Positions 1-12,085 of a stretch of DNA of 12,686 nucleotides are shown here, in pieces. The stretch lies in UHGV virus genome UHGV-0141872; one strand, given 5' to 3'. The position numbers and the translations under genes were made by a program. Under the pieces are notes generated by a model. That model was not told the DNA's origin, made no database searches, and saw only the letters and a program-made list of their open reading frames with translations. This DNA is from a virus. Position 1 is the stretch's first letter. Every line of letters begins with the position of its first letter.

Positions 1-1325
1 TTCGAGAACTCATACACTTTGTTGGCATGATGACCGCCCGAGTCATGGCAGACCGCCGAGAGCGTCAGCCCGAAACCGTCGGCCCGCCGCCAGACCTGCT
101 TCAGGTACGCGTCAAGGCGCTCCCACGGCTCTTCTGTTTCCAGGTCACCAAAAATCACGTCATGCGCAATCACCCAGCACTCTTCGTTCATGCCCCAGCC
201 GAGAACGGTGATTTCGAAGCGGTCATCCTGCGTATCTACCCCGGCGGTCAGCAGGAGCACGCCATACGGCACCTCCGCTCCCCAGACCTCGACACGGGCA
301 ATCAGCCGCTGCTCACTCATCGCAAACTCACCGGTATCCTCGTAAGGTTCGCCCAGGGTGGTGTTGATGAATGTCTGGCGCATCAGCGGGTCGTCCTTCA
401 CCCTCAGCCACTCAGCGACCAGATTCGGCCAGGAGGCATTTGAGTGTGGACTGTAGCCCGTCCAGATATGAAAACCGGCATGCCCCCTGAATGGTGCACT
501 GGCACGCCATTCGCCTTTTGCCAGCATCCCGGGCAGTTCACTGTGCACAATCACACAGCCGTGGTGACGGCACAGATAGTAAGCGGTCTCCGGCAGCCCG
601 TTACCTCCGCTGTCCTTTTCCCATTTGATGCCGTAAGGGGTGCTTTTGCTGCCCCACTCTAGCACCTGATATTCCCCGCAGTGAGGACAGGGTACGAAGT
701 AGCGGCGCTGATCGCTTTCCAGCCAGGCTTTTTCAATACGGCTCACGCCTTTCACTGTTGGCGTGGAGCCGAGAACAATCTTGCGGTTCCAGAAGGTTTC
801 GGAACGTTTTGTCCCCAGAGCAATCTGGTCCCCTTCGGAGCCTGCGCCACCTGCCGGATACCCGTCCACCTCATCAAAAAGGATGATGCGGCACGTGATA
901 CGGCGAAACCCGCCGGGCGAGTTGGCCCCGACCAGCGTGAGGTTTGCACCGTTGGAAAAGGTTTTGCGAAGAATGGTCTGGTTGCTGTTTTTTGCCTTCG
1001 GGTCGCCGCTGATGGCTGCCAGCACCGGCGTGTCGCGCAGCATCGGGGCAATTTCGGTTTTACTGTAGTCTTCGGCGTCCTCCACCCTTGGCTGAACCAC
1101 CAGGATGGGTGACGGATCATGTGCCAGGTAATAACCCACCACATGGTCAAGAATTTTGGTGTAACCCACACGGGCTGATTTCATCACCGACACATACGTG
1201 ACTGACGGGTCGGTGATGGCATCCATCATGCCATCCTGATAGGGATAGGAGCGGAATTTCCCCGTCTGGGCGCTGGTCTCACGGGAAAGCACGGCGAAGG
1301 TGTTGGCCCACTGGCTTAAGGACAT
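1..1325 (-). CDS. Terminase large subunit, lambda gpA-like; N-terminal ~441 aa, gene continues past the left edge of the window
   Basis: Open frame on the minus strand from ATG at 1325..1323 to position 1 with no stop (not in the ORF track because it lacks a stop). My translation (MSLSQWANTF...VMKSARVGYTKIL...RIILFDEVDGYP...VPCPHCGEYQVLEWG...) resembles recalled lambda gpA segments (VKSARVGYSKML, ACPHCGEEQYL). Start codon is uncertain: weak SD at 1325, and an in-frame TTG lies further upstream. Confidence 0.85.
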   Translation of the reverse strand, partial: MSLSQWANTFAVLSRETSAQTGKFRSYPYQDGMMDAITDPSVTYVSVMKSARVGYTKILDHVVGYYLAHDPSPILVVQPRVEDAEDYSKTEIAPMLRDTPVLAAISGDPKAKNSNQTILRKTFSNGANLTLVGANSPGGFRRITCRIILFDEVDGYPAGGAGSEGDQIALGTKRSETFWNRKIVLGSTPTVKGVSRIEKAWLESDQRRYFVPCPHCGEYQVLEWGSKSTPYGIKWEKDSGGNGLPETAYYLCRHHGCVIVHSELPGMLAKGEWRASAPFRGHAGFHIWTGYSPHSNASWPNLVAEWLRVKDDPLMRQTFINTTLGEPYEDTGEFAMSEQRLIARVEVWGAEVPYGVLLLTAGVDTQDDRFEITVLGWGMNEECWVIAHDVIFGDLETEEPWERLDAYLKQVWRRADGFGLTLSAVCHDSGGHHANKVYEFS

Positions 1326-1371
1326 CGGCTGCGGCGAAGCAAGATATCGTTGCAGCGGGAACAACGCCTCT

Positions 1372-1968
1372 TTAAGCAGGATCTTCTTCGATTTCCCTTT
1401 TCTCAAACGCAAGTTCATCCAGCGCCTCGTATATCAGCTCCTGCAGCGCTGCCGTGAAACCCTGATCATCCGTCATTCCCGCCAGCGCCCGCAGACGGGG
1501 ACCATGCTCCGGTGCAAGGGCTACAAGGCGCGTCCTCACCCGTGTGTATTCAGCAGCGACCTGTTCAGTAACGAGTTTCAGCGGGAACAGCTTTCCGTCC
1601 TTATCCTCATATTCCAGACGCGCCATCTCCGCAAAAAAGTGTTCTTTCACTGCGCGGGACTCTTCCAGTGAACGGATAACAACATCCCCGGTGGTGAGCG
1701 AATCAAACACTTCTCTTGCCCGTTGCTCGAACCCTTCCTCCGTGCCGGACTGCGATGCCCTGACTTTTCTGGCAACTCCGGTTTTTTTTCCGTTGGCCGC
1801 ACGCGGATCGGCGCTGTCACGAAAACGCTTCAGATTTTTATCCGTCGCCTCCACGTCAATTTTTTTTCCGTCCATGACGACGAACGTACCGGCCTTGATC
1901 CATCGTGAAATCGTTTTGCGGTTTACCCCGGCATGTTCGGCGTACTGCCCGACTGTCATTAAGCTCAC
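1372..1968 (-). CDS. Terminase small subunit (Nu1-like DNA-recognition subunit), 198 aa
   Basis: ORF-track protein MSLMTVGQYAEHAGVNRKTISRWIKAG... has an N-terminal HTH-like segment and sits immediately upstream of the gpA-like gene and downstream of the cos repeats. GTG start at 1968 preceded by GGAGGTG with a 5-nt spacer. Family assignment is by position and architecture, not strong sequence identity to lambda Nu1. Confidence 0.65.
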   Translation of the reverse strand: MSLMTVGQYAEHAGVNRKTISRWIKAGTFVVMDGKKIDVEATDKNLKRFRDSADPRAANGKKTGVARKVRASQSGTEEGFEQRAREVFDSLTTGDVVIRSLEESRAVKEHFFAEMARLEYEDKDGKLFPLKLVTEQVAAEYTRVRTRLVALAPEHGPRLRALAGMTDDQGFTAALQELIYEALDELAFEKREIEEDPA

Positions 1969-1987
1969 TGAATCACCTCCGAAAACG

Positions 1988-2163
1988 GGGACACTGGGAC
2001 ATCAAAATGAATGTCCCACAGATGGGACATGGAATGGGACATTGGGACATTGGGACATAAAAATGTCCCATTTTTTGGGACGCAAAATGCAGCCAAAAAT
2101 GTGCCTTAAGCCCGATGAGGAAAGGGATTAAACAAAAAATTAACAATGGGACATTGGGACGCA
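1988..2163. repeat. Array of 11 copies of the heptamer GGGACAY (9 direct incl. variants GGGACAC/GGGACGC, 2 inverted ATGTCCC); putative cosB-like terminase binding sites
   Basis: Direct copies at 1988, 1996, 2024, 2036, 2044, 2052, 2077, 2148, 2157; inverted copies at 2011 and 2063. Three copies form an exact 8-bp tandem (TGGGACAT x3 at 2035-2058). The array lies between the cosN-like sequence and the small terminase start, where lambda has its R sites. Confidence 0.55.
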
Positions 2164-2191
2164 AATTTGAAAATTTATAGCTGGTGAAACA

Positions 2192-2213
2192 CCGCGCTCG
2201 CGCAATGCCCGTG
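2192..2213. other. Putative cosN (cohesive-end nicking site) of the prophage
   Basis: Minus-strand sequence cacgGGCATTGCGCGAgcgcggtgtttcaccagctataaattttcaaatttgc parallels the recalled lambda cos sequence acgGGGCGGCGACCTcgcgggttttcgctatttatgaaaattttccgg (same framework: GC-rich 12-mer, then CGCGG, then T-rich/AT-rich stretch). Exact nick positions cannot be determined from sequence. Confidence 0.45.
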
Positions 2214-2238
2214 CAATAACTCGCTCAGGAAGGACCCG

Positions 2239-2358
2239 TTACCCTGCCAGGCGACAGTGTCGACATCCGCTTGCGGTTTCAAAAATCTCGAGATAACGAT
2301 AAGTCAGGATGCCATCACGAACCCCTGTAATGATTTTTTCACGACTGATGGTTTTCAT
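2239..2358 (-). CDS. Small hypothetical protein, 39 aa (MKTISREKIITGVRDGILTYRYLEIFETASGCRHCRLAG)
   Basis: Found by manual translation; below the ORF-track size cutoff. ATG at 2358 preceded by GAGGAAATAT (good SD). No recognisable family; could be a chance ORF. Confidence 0.3.
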   Translation of the reverse strand: MKTISREKIITGVRDGILTYRYLEIFETASGCRHCRLAG

Positions 2359-2433
2359 ATATTTCCTCACATTTCATCAGACAATAAAAAACGCTGCTGG
2401 CACGTTCTTTCTTCATGGCAGCAATGCCCTGCA

Positions 2434-3099
2434 TCACTTCGCCGTCTTTAACGCCTGTTCAAGCGCCACGCTCAGCTCCGTCTTCATGAGACGCGATGCC
2501 ATGTCGTGCGCCAGCGCCTGATAACCCAGTACCGGCGTGACCGGCAGTGCATCACCAAAACGTATCAACAGCTTTGGTGAAGGGCTTTTTTTGCGGGGAG
2601 CGCGTGTGCCATTGGGGGAGCGTTTTCTCCGCTTCCTGGTTTTTGCCACTTTTTTCGCTTTCTTACGCTGCCAGACGCCACCAACATCCTCACCATCGTT
2701 GTTCATCACCTTACCGATGAACACATCCGGTCTGGCCTTCAGCTGTTGCAGTTTTGCCTTTGGCAGGTTGCCGTATTTGTTCAGCCGGATATTTTTCGGG
2801 TTCAGTACAGCTTTCTGCCCCTCACCGAGATAATGCAGCCCGCCCACCTCAAAAGGTTCAAGGTAAGGCACGGCGGTATCCATGATGAACACCCGACCGG
2901 TAAGATTGTCCCTTGTTGCCCCTTTTGAGCGCACCGAGTTCACGGTGAACGGCGTCGGGTTATCCAGCTTCCGGCGAAGGTTTTCTTTCTCTGCCGCTTC
3001 AATTTTTCTCACCGTGGCGGTGATGGCGCGCGCAGTGGCAAAACGCACCTGTTTCTGCATCCCCTGAAGCTGTCTGTGAAGGTCATTAAGGTCAGCCAT
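2434..3099 (-). CDS. Hypothetical phage protein, 221 aa, basic with a Lys/Arg-rich low-complexity segment (KKAKKVAKTRKRRKRSPNGTRAPRKKSPSPK)
   Basis: ATG at 3099 preceded by AAGGTGGAATA (SD). Located between the lysis genes and cos (the lambda bor/moron position). Function not recognisable from sequence. A hairpin plus T-run follows the stop (about 2395-2432). Confidence 0.6.
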   Translation of the reverse strand: MADLNDLHRQLQGMQKQVRFATARAITATVRKIEAAEKENLRRKLDNPTPFTVNSVRSKGATRDNLTGRVFIMDTAVPYLEPFEVGGLHYLGEGQKAVLNPKNIRLNKYGNLPKAKLQQLKARPDVFIGKVMNNDGEDVGGVWQRKKAKKVAKTRKRRKRSPNGTRAPRKKSPSPKLLIRFGDALPVTPVLGYQALAHDMASRLMKTELSVALEQALKTAK

Positions 3100-3159
3100 T
3101 ATTCCACCTTCTCAAGCTGCATTATCGCAGCCCCTCACTGAAGGGCTGCTGTAATGCTG

Positions 3160-3459
3160 TTACTCAGTAACTACCGCACCTTCCGGTAATTCCATACCGG
3201 CAAATACCGGACAACCAGGATGACGCTCATCTTCTGTTGCTTCCAGCATTGACTGACCAAACCACTCCGTCGTGGCGCGACCATCAGCTGCTTTGTAGTG
3301 GATCAGGTACTGGTTTTCACCATCCGCATACTGCGCGCGGGCTTTAATCTCACCCCATTCATCACTGATGCGCATCTCCACCAGTTGAGACAACTCAAAC
3401 TTAAACGGAGCAGCATCAGCACCAATTACAAACGGTTTGTTTTCTGTTTTTTTCATCAT
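3160..3459 (-). CDS. Hypothetical acidic protein, ~99 aa (MMKKTENKPFVIGADAAPFKFELSQLVEMRISDEW...)
   Basis: The ORF-track frame starts at ATG 3507 with no SD; the internal ATG-ATG at 3459/3456 is preceded by CAGGAGACG (strong SD), so the shorter form is preferred. No family recognised. Confidence 0.55.
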   Translation of the reverse strand: MMKKTENKPFVIGADAAPFKFELSQLVEMRISDEWGEIKARAQYADGENQYLIHYKAADGRATTEWFGQSMLEATEDERHPGCPVFAGMELPEGAVVTE

Positions 3460-6046: not shown

Positions 6047-6121
<75 letters not shown>

Positions 6122-6124
6122 ATA

Positions 6125-6200
<76 letters not shown>

Positions 6201-11628: not shown

Positions 11629-11784
11629 TTACTCCTCAGGTTCGTAAGCTGTGAAGACAGCGACCTCCGTCTGGCCGGTTCAGATTCGTACCTCGCAGAG
11701 GTCTTTCCTCGTTACCAGTGCCGTCACTATGACGGTTAAACAGATGACGATCAGGGCGATTAACATCGCCTTTTGCTGCTTCAT
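11629..11784 (-). pseudogene. hokD: hok-family type I toxin gene (HokD/RelF-like) interrupted by an in-frame TGA at codon 35
   Basis: Translation MKQQKAMLIALIVICLTVIVTALVTRKDLCEVRI*TGQTEVAVFTAYEPEE matches my recollection of E. coli HokD (51 aa) except that the Arg codon is TGA (11682..11680). SD AAGGAG lies 9 nt upstream of ATG at 11784. Confidence 0.6.
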
Positions 11785-11900
11785 AGCCTGCTTCTCCTTG
11801 CCTTTCGGCACGTAAGAGGCTAACCTACATGTGTCTAGCATGAAATTGGCCTCAGATTAATGTTAAGCGTCTTGCAGGACGCGTAATGTTAACTGGGGCT
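11785..11900. promoter_or_regulatory. hok mRNA leader / mok-overlap region; expected location of the antisense Sok RNA and its promoter (plus strand)
   Basis: Inferred from the canonical hok/sok architecture (antisense RNA complementary to the leader of the toxin mRNA). An in-frame upstream ATG (MLDTCRLASYVPKGKEKQA...) is present in the leader. Exact Sok boundaries cannot be set from sequence alone. Confidence 0.3.
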
Positions 11901-11995
11901 TTTCTCTATCTGCCGTTGGTGTTCATGCCCGAGGCAGATAGCCTCAAGCACCCGCAGCCATTCTACTTAACTACCGCTACCTCGCCAATATGAAA

Positions 11996-12085
11996 TCAGT
12001 CTGAAAGGCGATCCATAAGAACAATAGCAAGACAATAAATCGCCATTACAGCTGTAATAGCCAGCGCACATTTGAGAACCAGCAC
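11996..12085 (-). CDS. Candidate small hydrophobic peptide, 29 aa (MLVLKCALAITAVMAIYCLAIVLMDRLSD)
   Basis: Found by manual translation. GTG start at 12085 with AGGAGG 5 nt upstream; single predicted TM helix. No family recognised; could be a chance ORF. Confidence 0.3.
   Translation of the reverse strand: MLVLKCALAITAVMAIYCLAIVLMDRLSD

Follow-up and report, generated by a model that had tools for sequence, protein, structure and literature searches.

Sequence analysis of a 12,686-nt stretch of the virus genome UHGV-0141872 (hereafter the window) revealed a region on the minus strand, from position 2237 to 1987, which is very probably (about 0.85) where DNA packaging starts, the cos site, in a prophage whose head-packaging module is of the lambda type. 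Read toward the terminase genes, it comprises a cosQ-like heptamer, a predicted cosN and an array of short repeats that lies upstream of the small terminase gene terS, which is followed by the large terminase gene terL (Table 1; positions with a plus sign are counted from the predicted nick). A previous sequence-only reading of this DNA had proposed a cos site at 1988-2213, with a lambda-like cosN and a GGGACAY heptamer array. Both cosN and the array were found inside that interval, but the site extends further, to cosQ at 2231-2237. Four other explanations of the region were weighed and are taken up below with the evidence that bears on them; jointly they retain a small share of the probability.

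The cosQ-like and predicted cosN elements

The record of Serratia phage vB_SspM_BZS1 (BZS1) begins with an annotated 12-nt cosL, and its published description gives the 5′ overhang as GCATTGCGCGCC, determined by PhageTerm, with confirmation from polymerase chain reaction (PCR) and sequencing through the cos of the prophage (PMC7556043). Comparison of the window with this mapped overhang found 10 of 12 bases identical at 2208-2197, and a 15-mer at 2213-2199, CACGGGCATTGCGCG, was found unchanged in BZS1, in Citrobacter phage phiNP and in the 83 members of the family listed from viral contigs. Around the predicted nicks the sequence, in the terS direction, reads ...GGGTCCTTCCTGAGCGAGTTATTGCACGG / GCATTGCGCGAG / CGCGGTGTTTCACCAGCTATAAATTTTCAAATTTG..., and the window cosN would accordingly give 12-nt 5′ cohesive ends. 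The placement taken from BZS1 could be off by 1 nt when compared with a lambda-like ACG/G register.

The heptamer GGGTCCT, contained in GGGTCCTTCC (2228-2237), is unique in the window with both strands considered. It is located 29 nt upstream of the predicted nick (30 in lambda), and was also found to be kept in BZS1, phiNP and 83 of the 122 cosN matches listed from viral contigs. The flanks of the nicks are lambda-like as well (ACGG/.../CGCGGnnTTTC); on the right, CGCGGTGTTTC...TATAAATTTTC can be aligned with lambda bp 13-45. This right-hand flank falls in a conserved block (2163-2196), to which BZS1 and phiNP have aligning counterparts in their AGCTAT..TTTTGAAATTT blocks. The 12-nt end itself, however, is identical to the lambda cohesive end GGGCGGCGACCT at only 4 of 12 positions in ungapped register. 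The resemblance of cosN to lambda is therefore restricted to its position, its flanks and cosQ, and the earlier description stands to that extent.

Bipartite arrays of short repeats as packaging recognition sites are also known from phage P1. The P1 pac site has two clusters of TGATCA/G hexamers, serves headful packaging, depends on Dam methylation and is cut between the clusters. It was therefore considered whether the region of the window is a headful (pac-type) start site of this kind. The repeat words of the window array contain no GATC, and the predicted cut lies outside the array instead of between clusters. Furthermore, the window terL belongs to the gpA family, unrelated to the P1 terminase; cosQ, which is needed only in cos-type termination, is conserved; and the homologous sequence in BZS1 has defined 12-nt cohesive ends. 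These data make a pac site very unlikely.

An octamer array between cosN and terS

Nine exact GGGACAY heptamers were found in the window, seven on the plus and two on the minus strand, and all of them are located inside 1988-2154. Dinucleotide-preserving shuffles (n = 200) gave a whole-window expectation of 2.65 (standard deviation 1.61), and none of the 200 reached nine copies; for 175 bp the expectation is about 0.037, with a Poisson P of about 3e-19. The shorter core GGGAC occurs eleven times in 1987-2162, nine times on the plus strand and twice on the minus strand, the cores at 2077 and 2156 being GGGACGC and thus deviating from GGGACAY. The eleven GGGACAY copies of the sequence-only reading are therefore a count of GGGAC cores, and only nine are exact heptamers. 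Its division into nine direct and two inverted copies is correct, and the exact 8-bp triple tandem that it reported was found as three copies of TGGGACAT at 2035-2058. The heptamer had to be replaced as the repeat unit: 276 homologous sites from 35 related loci revealed an octamer, TGGGACAT, or ATGTCCCA in the terS direction. The consensus in that direction, A(A/G)TGTCCCA, has T at -1 in 270 and A at +5 in 267 of the 276 sites. The cosB of the window has ten copies of GTCCCA and none of GTAACA, the corresponding word of a second class of loci described below.

The octamers form a proximal tandem pair, an A+T-rich spacer and a distal array of nine. The array ends 19 bp before the GTG start codon of terS (1968, or +241 from the nick), in keeping with the earlier statement that it lies immediately upstream of the small terminase gene. 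The TGGGACAT tandem has three copies in the window and two in all four of its closest relatives (L112, L128, L129 and L130), which is an 8-bp slippage polymorphism within the putative binding array; some octamer sites may therefore be redundant. Two apparent coding features of the array were rejected. A 63-aa open reading frame (ORF) at 1973-2164 on the minus strand is an artefact of the repeat, as ATGTCCCA has no stop codons, and so are the extensions ('MSHMSQCP...') with which TerS begins in some loci.

Short repeats on either side of an A+T-rich 63-bp stretch could also make up an iteron replication origin, as in a plasmid, a Staphylococcus aureus pathogenicity island (SaPI) or a phage-inducible chromosomal island (PICI), and the array was also found in primase-encoding islands (see below). 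Nevertheless, the neighbours of the array are terS and a 39-aa ORF, with no adjacent initiator gene, and in the islands it sits at one end, far from the primase gene. Its register to cosN is fixed, it covaries with TerS and not with any replication protein, and in one class of loci the distal repeats are inside the terS coding sequence. An origin is the least probable of the alternatives.

Terminase genes and the TerS DNA-binding domain

The terL gene overlaps the 3′ end of terS by 47 nt. Pfam matches of its product to GpA_ATPase (E 8.9e-77) and GpA_nuclease (E 2.2e-49) were found, and terL therefore encodes a large terminase of the lambda gpA type; its DNA is 72.6% identical to that of BZS1. 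TerS is 40% identical to its BZS1 and 38% identical to its phiNP counterpart. With a gpA-type terL, a TerS assigned to phrog_57 and a cosN matched to BZS1, the cosN-cosB-terS-terL layout proposed in the sequence-only reading was supported. TerS comprises an N-terminal winged helix-turn-helix (HTH) domain (residues about 1-52), a disordered linker (55-75) and a helical C-terminal part. Alignment of the homologues found the N-terminal domains and linkers to be variable and the C-terminal body to be conserved.

The structure of TerS was modelled with AlphaFold from a 35-sequence alignment, and the N-terminal 55 residues were modelled separately; the predicted local distance difference test (pLDDT) scores were 76.7 for the full-length protein and 88.2 for the N-terminal domain. 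The model of residues 1-55 has the order strand-helix(6-13)-helix(17-26)-beta hairpin-helix(39-51), and the full-length model is disordered at 55-75 and has long C-terminal helices. As a Foldseek search with the full-length model was swamped by generic HTH proteins, the domain alone was used. Among structures in the PDB it superposed on the small-terminase DNA-binding domains 7lw0_A and 7lwr_A (template modelling (TM) score 0.67, probability 0.97-0.98), on the TerS DNA-binding domain 6hn7_B (TM 0.65) and on the gpNu1 DNA-binding domain 1j9i (TM 0.60, probability 0.90), as well as on Pukovnik Xis (TM 0.60), BldC (0.58-0.60), RacA (up to 0.61) and MerR N-domains. Winged-HTH proteins of the Xis, BldC and MerR-N type occupy closely spaced direct repeats in head-to-tail fashion; the superpositions on them have weak E-values, and these proteins differ from TerS in acting in recombination or transcription and in having no domain for terminase oligomerisation. 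By these models TerS probably acts like Nu1, yet it is outside the Nu1 sequence family.

In public records, TerS homologues of this family (P0004-P0066), some of which carry PF07278, go under the names 'RNA polymerase subunit sigma-70', 'cytochrome P450' or 'hypothetical protein'. This looks like systematic misannotation, and the naming of these proteins is open to correction.

Covariation of the repeat word with the TerS helix

Viral contigs were scanned for the 15-mer CACGGGCATTGCGCG, and at least 122 matches were obtained, of which a few are reference loci. Those 83 with GGGTCC within 45 nt upstream of the 15-mer were taken as family members; together with the window they make 84 members and 67 distinct cos-to-terS regions. 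In genome contigs, only two of the 120 listed matches to the 15-mer were real (L227 and L245), the rest being mostly chance matches in GC-rich genomes from which no host range could be read, and a back-translated search of genome contigs for TerS relatives found no match.

The listed loci have a common plan, in which proximal direct copies are followed by a spacer, one to three inverted copies and then three to six direct copies. Each listed family member has one to three direct copies of its own word at +45 to +70. Two main classes of repeat word were found, and the word follows the TerS recognition helix. All 35 distinct loci with the helix [DN]RKT[IV]xRW have 6-11 sites of the GTCCC type and 0-2 of the GTAAC type, and all 28 loci with the helix SRKT[VI]TxWKxRGW have 6-14 sites of the GTAAC type and 0-1 of the GTCCC type, so that no exception was seen among the 63 distinct listed loci of these two classes. 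The window, with the helix NRKTISRWI, belongs to the GTCCCA class; the class of BZS1 and phiNP has the helix SRKTVTxWK. An arginine is found directly before the conserved tryptophan in every GTCCC-class helix and in no GTAAC-class helix, and this arginine may contact the GGG/CCC triplet.

Further pairs of word and helix were SRRAFYNW with TTCACA (L058 and L245) and CSDTLVRRAVKQG with GTTCGCA (L062), and the words GGTTGTC (L113) and GGTGTCCGC (L089) each occur with a different TerS N-terminal helix. The same cosQ-cosN core thus carries at least four words beyond GTCCCA and GTAACA; at three further loci with this core (L014, L065 and L123) the repeat word is not clear.

In the short GGTAACA form, seen in BZS1, phiNP and a prophage of E. 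coli sequence type 2350 (ST2350), terS starts at +74, in BZS1 and phiNP with an ATG that follows three copies. The inverted copies and the distal direct ones are located inside terS, at about +205 to +310. There GGTAAC encodes a Gly-Asn-rich linker (L001, about 14012-13650; L004, 1-330; L006, 1421-1760), and one stretch of DNA therefore serves as both linker and putative TerS binding array. The spacers also vary in content. In five GTCCCA-class loci (L033, L037, L079, L086 and L095) the proximal octamers are followed by a 14-bp palindrome, TGCATA-NN-TATGCA, which is absent from the window, and spacers of the L007 type have TTATTCCA twice instead of the palindrome.

Locus L113 (an IMG/VR contig, about 11672-12000) has a cos of the same family followed by a 54-aa ORF that resembles the winged HTH of TerS only (MSHVFILKFAAMHGVSKQAAAKWKTRGL...), with GGTTGTC repeats on both sides and no terL downstream; its layout recalls the cos-rpp of E. 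coli PICIs.

Exchange of a specificity cassette and orphan cos copies

Over 89% of its length the window matches the E. coli ST2350 prophage at 94.5% identity. In that prophage the genes downstream of terL are those for gpW, portal, S49 protease, decoration protein and major capsid protein, and a contractile tail comes next. By segment, the identity is 91.6% at 1-1649, 92.2% at 2159-2387 and 96.7% at 2387-3200. The only stretch of positions 1-3200 that is unmatched is a 509-bp cassette, which consists of the 5′ part of terS (DNA-binding domain and linker) and the array minus its outermost 4 bp. At this position the ST2350 prophage has GGTAACA repeats and the TerS helix SRKTVTAWKARGW. The window-type array is found in only 3 of 5,426 complete E. 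coli genomes.

The sequence-only reading had put forward the repeats as candidate binding sites for the HTH of the small terminase, and the covariation at 63 of 63 listed loci and the joint exchange of the repeats with the 5′ end of terS both argue for it. Its further proposal, that this terminase has a distinct recognition specificity, is therefore also supported.

In two of these three genomes the window-type cos was found as an orphan copy, namely in E. coli 2015C-4136CT1 (L131 14001-14259, corresponding to NZ_CP027550.1 1657865-1658123) and E. coli EC12 (L132 14001-14262, NZ_CP070229.1). Conservation of these copies begins about 10 nt upstream of cosQ and extends as far as the ribosome-binding site of terS, where homology ends, and neither terS nor terL follows the array. 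The two islands are similar, and each copy is located at one end of its island, with genes for a primase-family protein, an Icd-like protein, SSB, ProQ/FinO and PerC-type regulators and without capsid or terminase genes. The island of 2015C-4136CT1 is about 17 kb long, with a tyrosine integrase gene at its end, and is inserted at thiM-rcnR; that of EC12 is located beside tRNA-Ile near mug. A suspected third orphan, H42, turned out to be a complete prophage of the GGTAACA class.

The conserved block between cosN and the first repeats has 2-3 mismatches in 32 positions in the orphan copies. In the more diverged EC12 copy, cosQ and cosN have no change in 29 positions, and the octamers have 3 substitutions in 80 positions versus 24 in 88 for non-repeat cosB (Fisher p = 3e-5). 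Comparable to deletion and mutagenesis carried out by nature, the orphan copies thus appear to delimit a self-contained unit of about 255 bp, and point to selection on the octamers specifically. The same comparison bears on the possibility that the repeats are a functionless, slippage-prone microsatellite beside a real cosN. Variation in tandem copies between the window (three) and its four closest relatives (two) is what such a sequence would give, but repeats were kept while the intervening DNA diverged, and the architecture is maintained across unrelated spacers and different repeat words. A microsatellite is hence about as improbable as a pac site. The two islands themselves look like phage satellites that have copied the whole cos of a helper.

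On the sense strand of terS, direct and inverted octamers of the window also pair into stems of 6-8 bp, with a T-rich run after each stem (2030-2011 and 2081-2065). A terminator scan gave three sites (0.7 expected), all of them such octamer pairs, and a scan for promoters was negative on the terS strand. The octamers could be operators for another protein, or attenuating RNA or DNA hairpins, with the packaging site reduced to cosQ and cosN. Against this explanation, the repeat word follows the TerS helix in both main classes and was exchanged together with the TerS DNA-binding domain; arrays are retained in terminase-less islands, where there is no terS to regulate; and the proximal pair is at a fixed, R3-like distance from cosN in every class examined. 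We consider a purely regulatory role unlikely, although it deserves somewhat more weight than the other alternatives.

Comparison with known cos sites

The window shares with lambda the order cosQ, cosN, cosB, terS and overlapping terL, the identical cosQ heptamer, similar nick flanks, a terL of the gpA family and a TerS with an N-terminal winged HTH. In lambda cosB, R3 at bp 50-65 is followed by I1, an inverted R2 and a direct R1 (PMC9026076, PMC4669245), and the distance measured between nick and R site is 47 ± 2 bp (PMC9026076 and its reference 26). The first TerS site of the window would be at +47 to +62, and inverted sites are likewise found beyond a spacer. Differences from lambda are an 8-bp word present eleven times versus three 16-bp R sites, the dissimilar cohesive end, a TerS outside Pfam Nu1, the lack of a convincing site for integration host factor (IHF), and a terS start at +241 versus +191.

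With BZS1 and phiNP the window shares cosQ, the cosN 15-mer, the AGCTAT..TTTTGAAATTT block and homologous TerS and terL. It differs from them in the word (TGTCCCA versus GGTAACA), in the TerS helix, and in having no repeats inside terS, where these two phages have their inverted and remaining direct copies. The short forms resemble the 'simple cosB' of N15, in which R3 is accompanied by an inverted rR2 inside gene 1 (PMC4669245): the proximal sites are directly followed by the terS start, and about 200 bp further on terS contains an inverted site. The long forms, including the window, resemble the 'complex' cosB of Monarch and of lambda, with the whole array upstream of terS. N15 and Monarch differ from the window in cohesive end and repeat word, and have one to three sites where the window has many.

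Several points weigh against the interpretation as a lambda-type cos site. The support comes wholly from comparison, for the DNA ends and for binding alike, and the predicted overhang has little in common with that of lambda. No Foldseek match of the domain against the PDB reached E <= 0.001 and all matches were weak (E > 0.07), because the domain has only 55 residues. In Pfam no Phage_Nu1 match was found, only HTH_17 at 20.3 bits versus a cut-off of 27; BLASTP against Nu1 gave a weak match of 10/29 identities (E 0.013) confined to the N-terminal HTH; TerS had no sequence similarity to N15 gp1; and a PDB sequence search with TerS gave no meaningful match. On the sense strand of terS, the pairs of direct and inverted octamers are also scored as hairpins of the terminator type. 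A match to the IHF consensus with one mismatch is present in the spacer at 2130-2142 (plus strand), but this is at chance level, with 12 IHF-like matches in the window versus 12.2 expected, and IHF binding is therefore without statistical support. Finally, octamers that abut every 8 bp cannot all be occupied from a single face of the helix, and the stoichiometry of binding is therefore uncertain.

Packaging model and significance

Under the cos interpretation, the N-terminal winged HTH of TerS would bind the octamer ATGTCCCA. The proximal tandem pair would take the role of lambda R3 and position the gpA-family large terminase at cosN, where staggered nicks would leave a 12-nt 5′ overhang close to GCATTGCGCGAG. 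The nine octamers at +126 to +222, two of them inverted, would correspond to R2 and R1 and, with the A+T-rich spacer, may hold a TerS oligomer on bent or wrapped DNA. Packaging would then proceed toward terS and terL and end at the next cos, with cosQ (GGGTCCT) required for termination.

The lambda-type cos with a cosB read by a TerS winged HTH is already known, and the cohesive end has been published for BZS1. The window cos is thus a new recognition-sequence variant of the lambda design in an enterobacterial prophage, and no new kind of mechanism. As noted by the Feiss laboratory, the documented packaging specificities of lambda-like cos phages are only those of lambda, 21 and N15 (PMC4669245). 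A literature search that mostly did not extend to subscription journals, and so leaves the absence of a prior description unproven, found no description of cosB for the BZS1-type family and nothing relevant beyond the BZS1 report, in which a keyword search showed the overhang and no occurrence of the term cosB (PMC7556043). A specialist would not be surprised in principle, and we rate the significance as moderate, its value being in the specificity cassettes and the candidate cos-mimicking satellites.

The related loci provide a natural series in which a TerS recognition helix and a short DNA word are matched on a constant cosQ-cosN background. Since near-isogenic prophages differ only in the 509-bp cassette, the rules of terminase-DNA recognition and the evolution of specificity can be tested by swaps. 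For the BZS1-type family, cosQ followed 17-19 nt later by CACGGGCATTGCGCG provides a signature for finding cos, and the islands provide candidate satellites that would parasitise phages of this family.

A broader reading, which we put forward tentatively and rate somewhat below even odds, is that of a large 'packaging barcode' system not described before, in which one cosQ-cosN core carries at least five or six interchangeable cassettes of word and TerS winged HTH and is exploited by terminase-less satellites. The words would be GTCCCA, GTAACA, TTCACA, GTTCGCA, GGTTGTC and GGTGTCCGC, and the window would hold one allele among those of Enterobacterales phages. If this is true, each cassette would be a separate packaging specificity. 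Some satellites would copy the complete cos of their helper, as in the E. coli islands at thiM-rcnR and tRNA-Ile, and others would pair their own repeats with a stand-alone gene for a TerS DNA-binding domain, as at L113.

Neighbouring genes

All genes around the cos site are on the minus strand. In the order of transcription they are two holin genes and an M15 endolysin gene, small ORFs, a gene for a 221-aa protein and the 39-aa ORF, followed by the repeats, terS and terL.

Table 1. Features of the putative cos region and of neighbouring genes in the window
Feature	Position	Strand	Remarks
cosQ-like heptamer GGGTCCT	2237-2231	-	Identical to lambda cosQ; presumed packaging-termination element
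cosN, predicted 12-nt 5′ cohesive end GCATTGCGCGAG	2208-2197	-	From comparison with BZS1; nicks placed within about 1 nt
Conserved block CGCGGTGTTTCACCAGCTATAAATTTTCAAATTT	2163-2196	-	Between cosN and first repeats; aligns with lambda bp 13-45 (CGCGGGTTTTCGCTATTTATGAAAATTTTCC)
Proximal tandem pair GCGTCCCA-ATGTCCCA	2162-2147 (+47 to +62)	-	Putative R3 equivalent
A+T-rich spacer, 63 bp	2146-2084	-	Separates proximal pair from distal array
Distal array, nine octamers	2083-1987 (+126 to +222)	-	Putative R2/R1 equivalent
Distal octamers in terS direction (n = 7)	2076-2083, 2051-2058, 2043-2050, 2035-2042, 2023-2030, 1995-2002, 1987-1994	-	
Distal octamers, inverted (n = 2)	2063-2070, 2011-2018		
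terS, 198 aa	1968-1372	-	phrog_57 'terminase small subunit', E 3.5e-26
terL, 5′ part, 472 codons	1418-1, runs off the window	-	gpA-family Pfam matches
Specificity cassette, 509 bp	1650-2158	-	Sole stretch of 1-3200 unmatched in the ST2350 prophage
39-aa Cys-containing ORF	2358-2239	-	TAA ends 2 nt before cosQ
221-aa ORF	2434-3099	-	phrog_1924 'minor tail protein'; slot upstream of cos
tRNA-Gly(TCC)	6047-6121	-	Between methyltransferase and lysis genes
tRNA-Thr(TGT)	6125-6200	-	Between methyltransferase and lysis genes

By position alone, the 221-aa ORF can be likened to p72 of BZS1, which occupies a slot that the BZS1 authors called conserved. The gene in the slot upstream of cos is annotated in phiNP as a p72 homologue.

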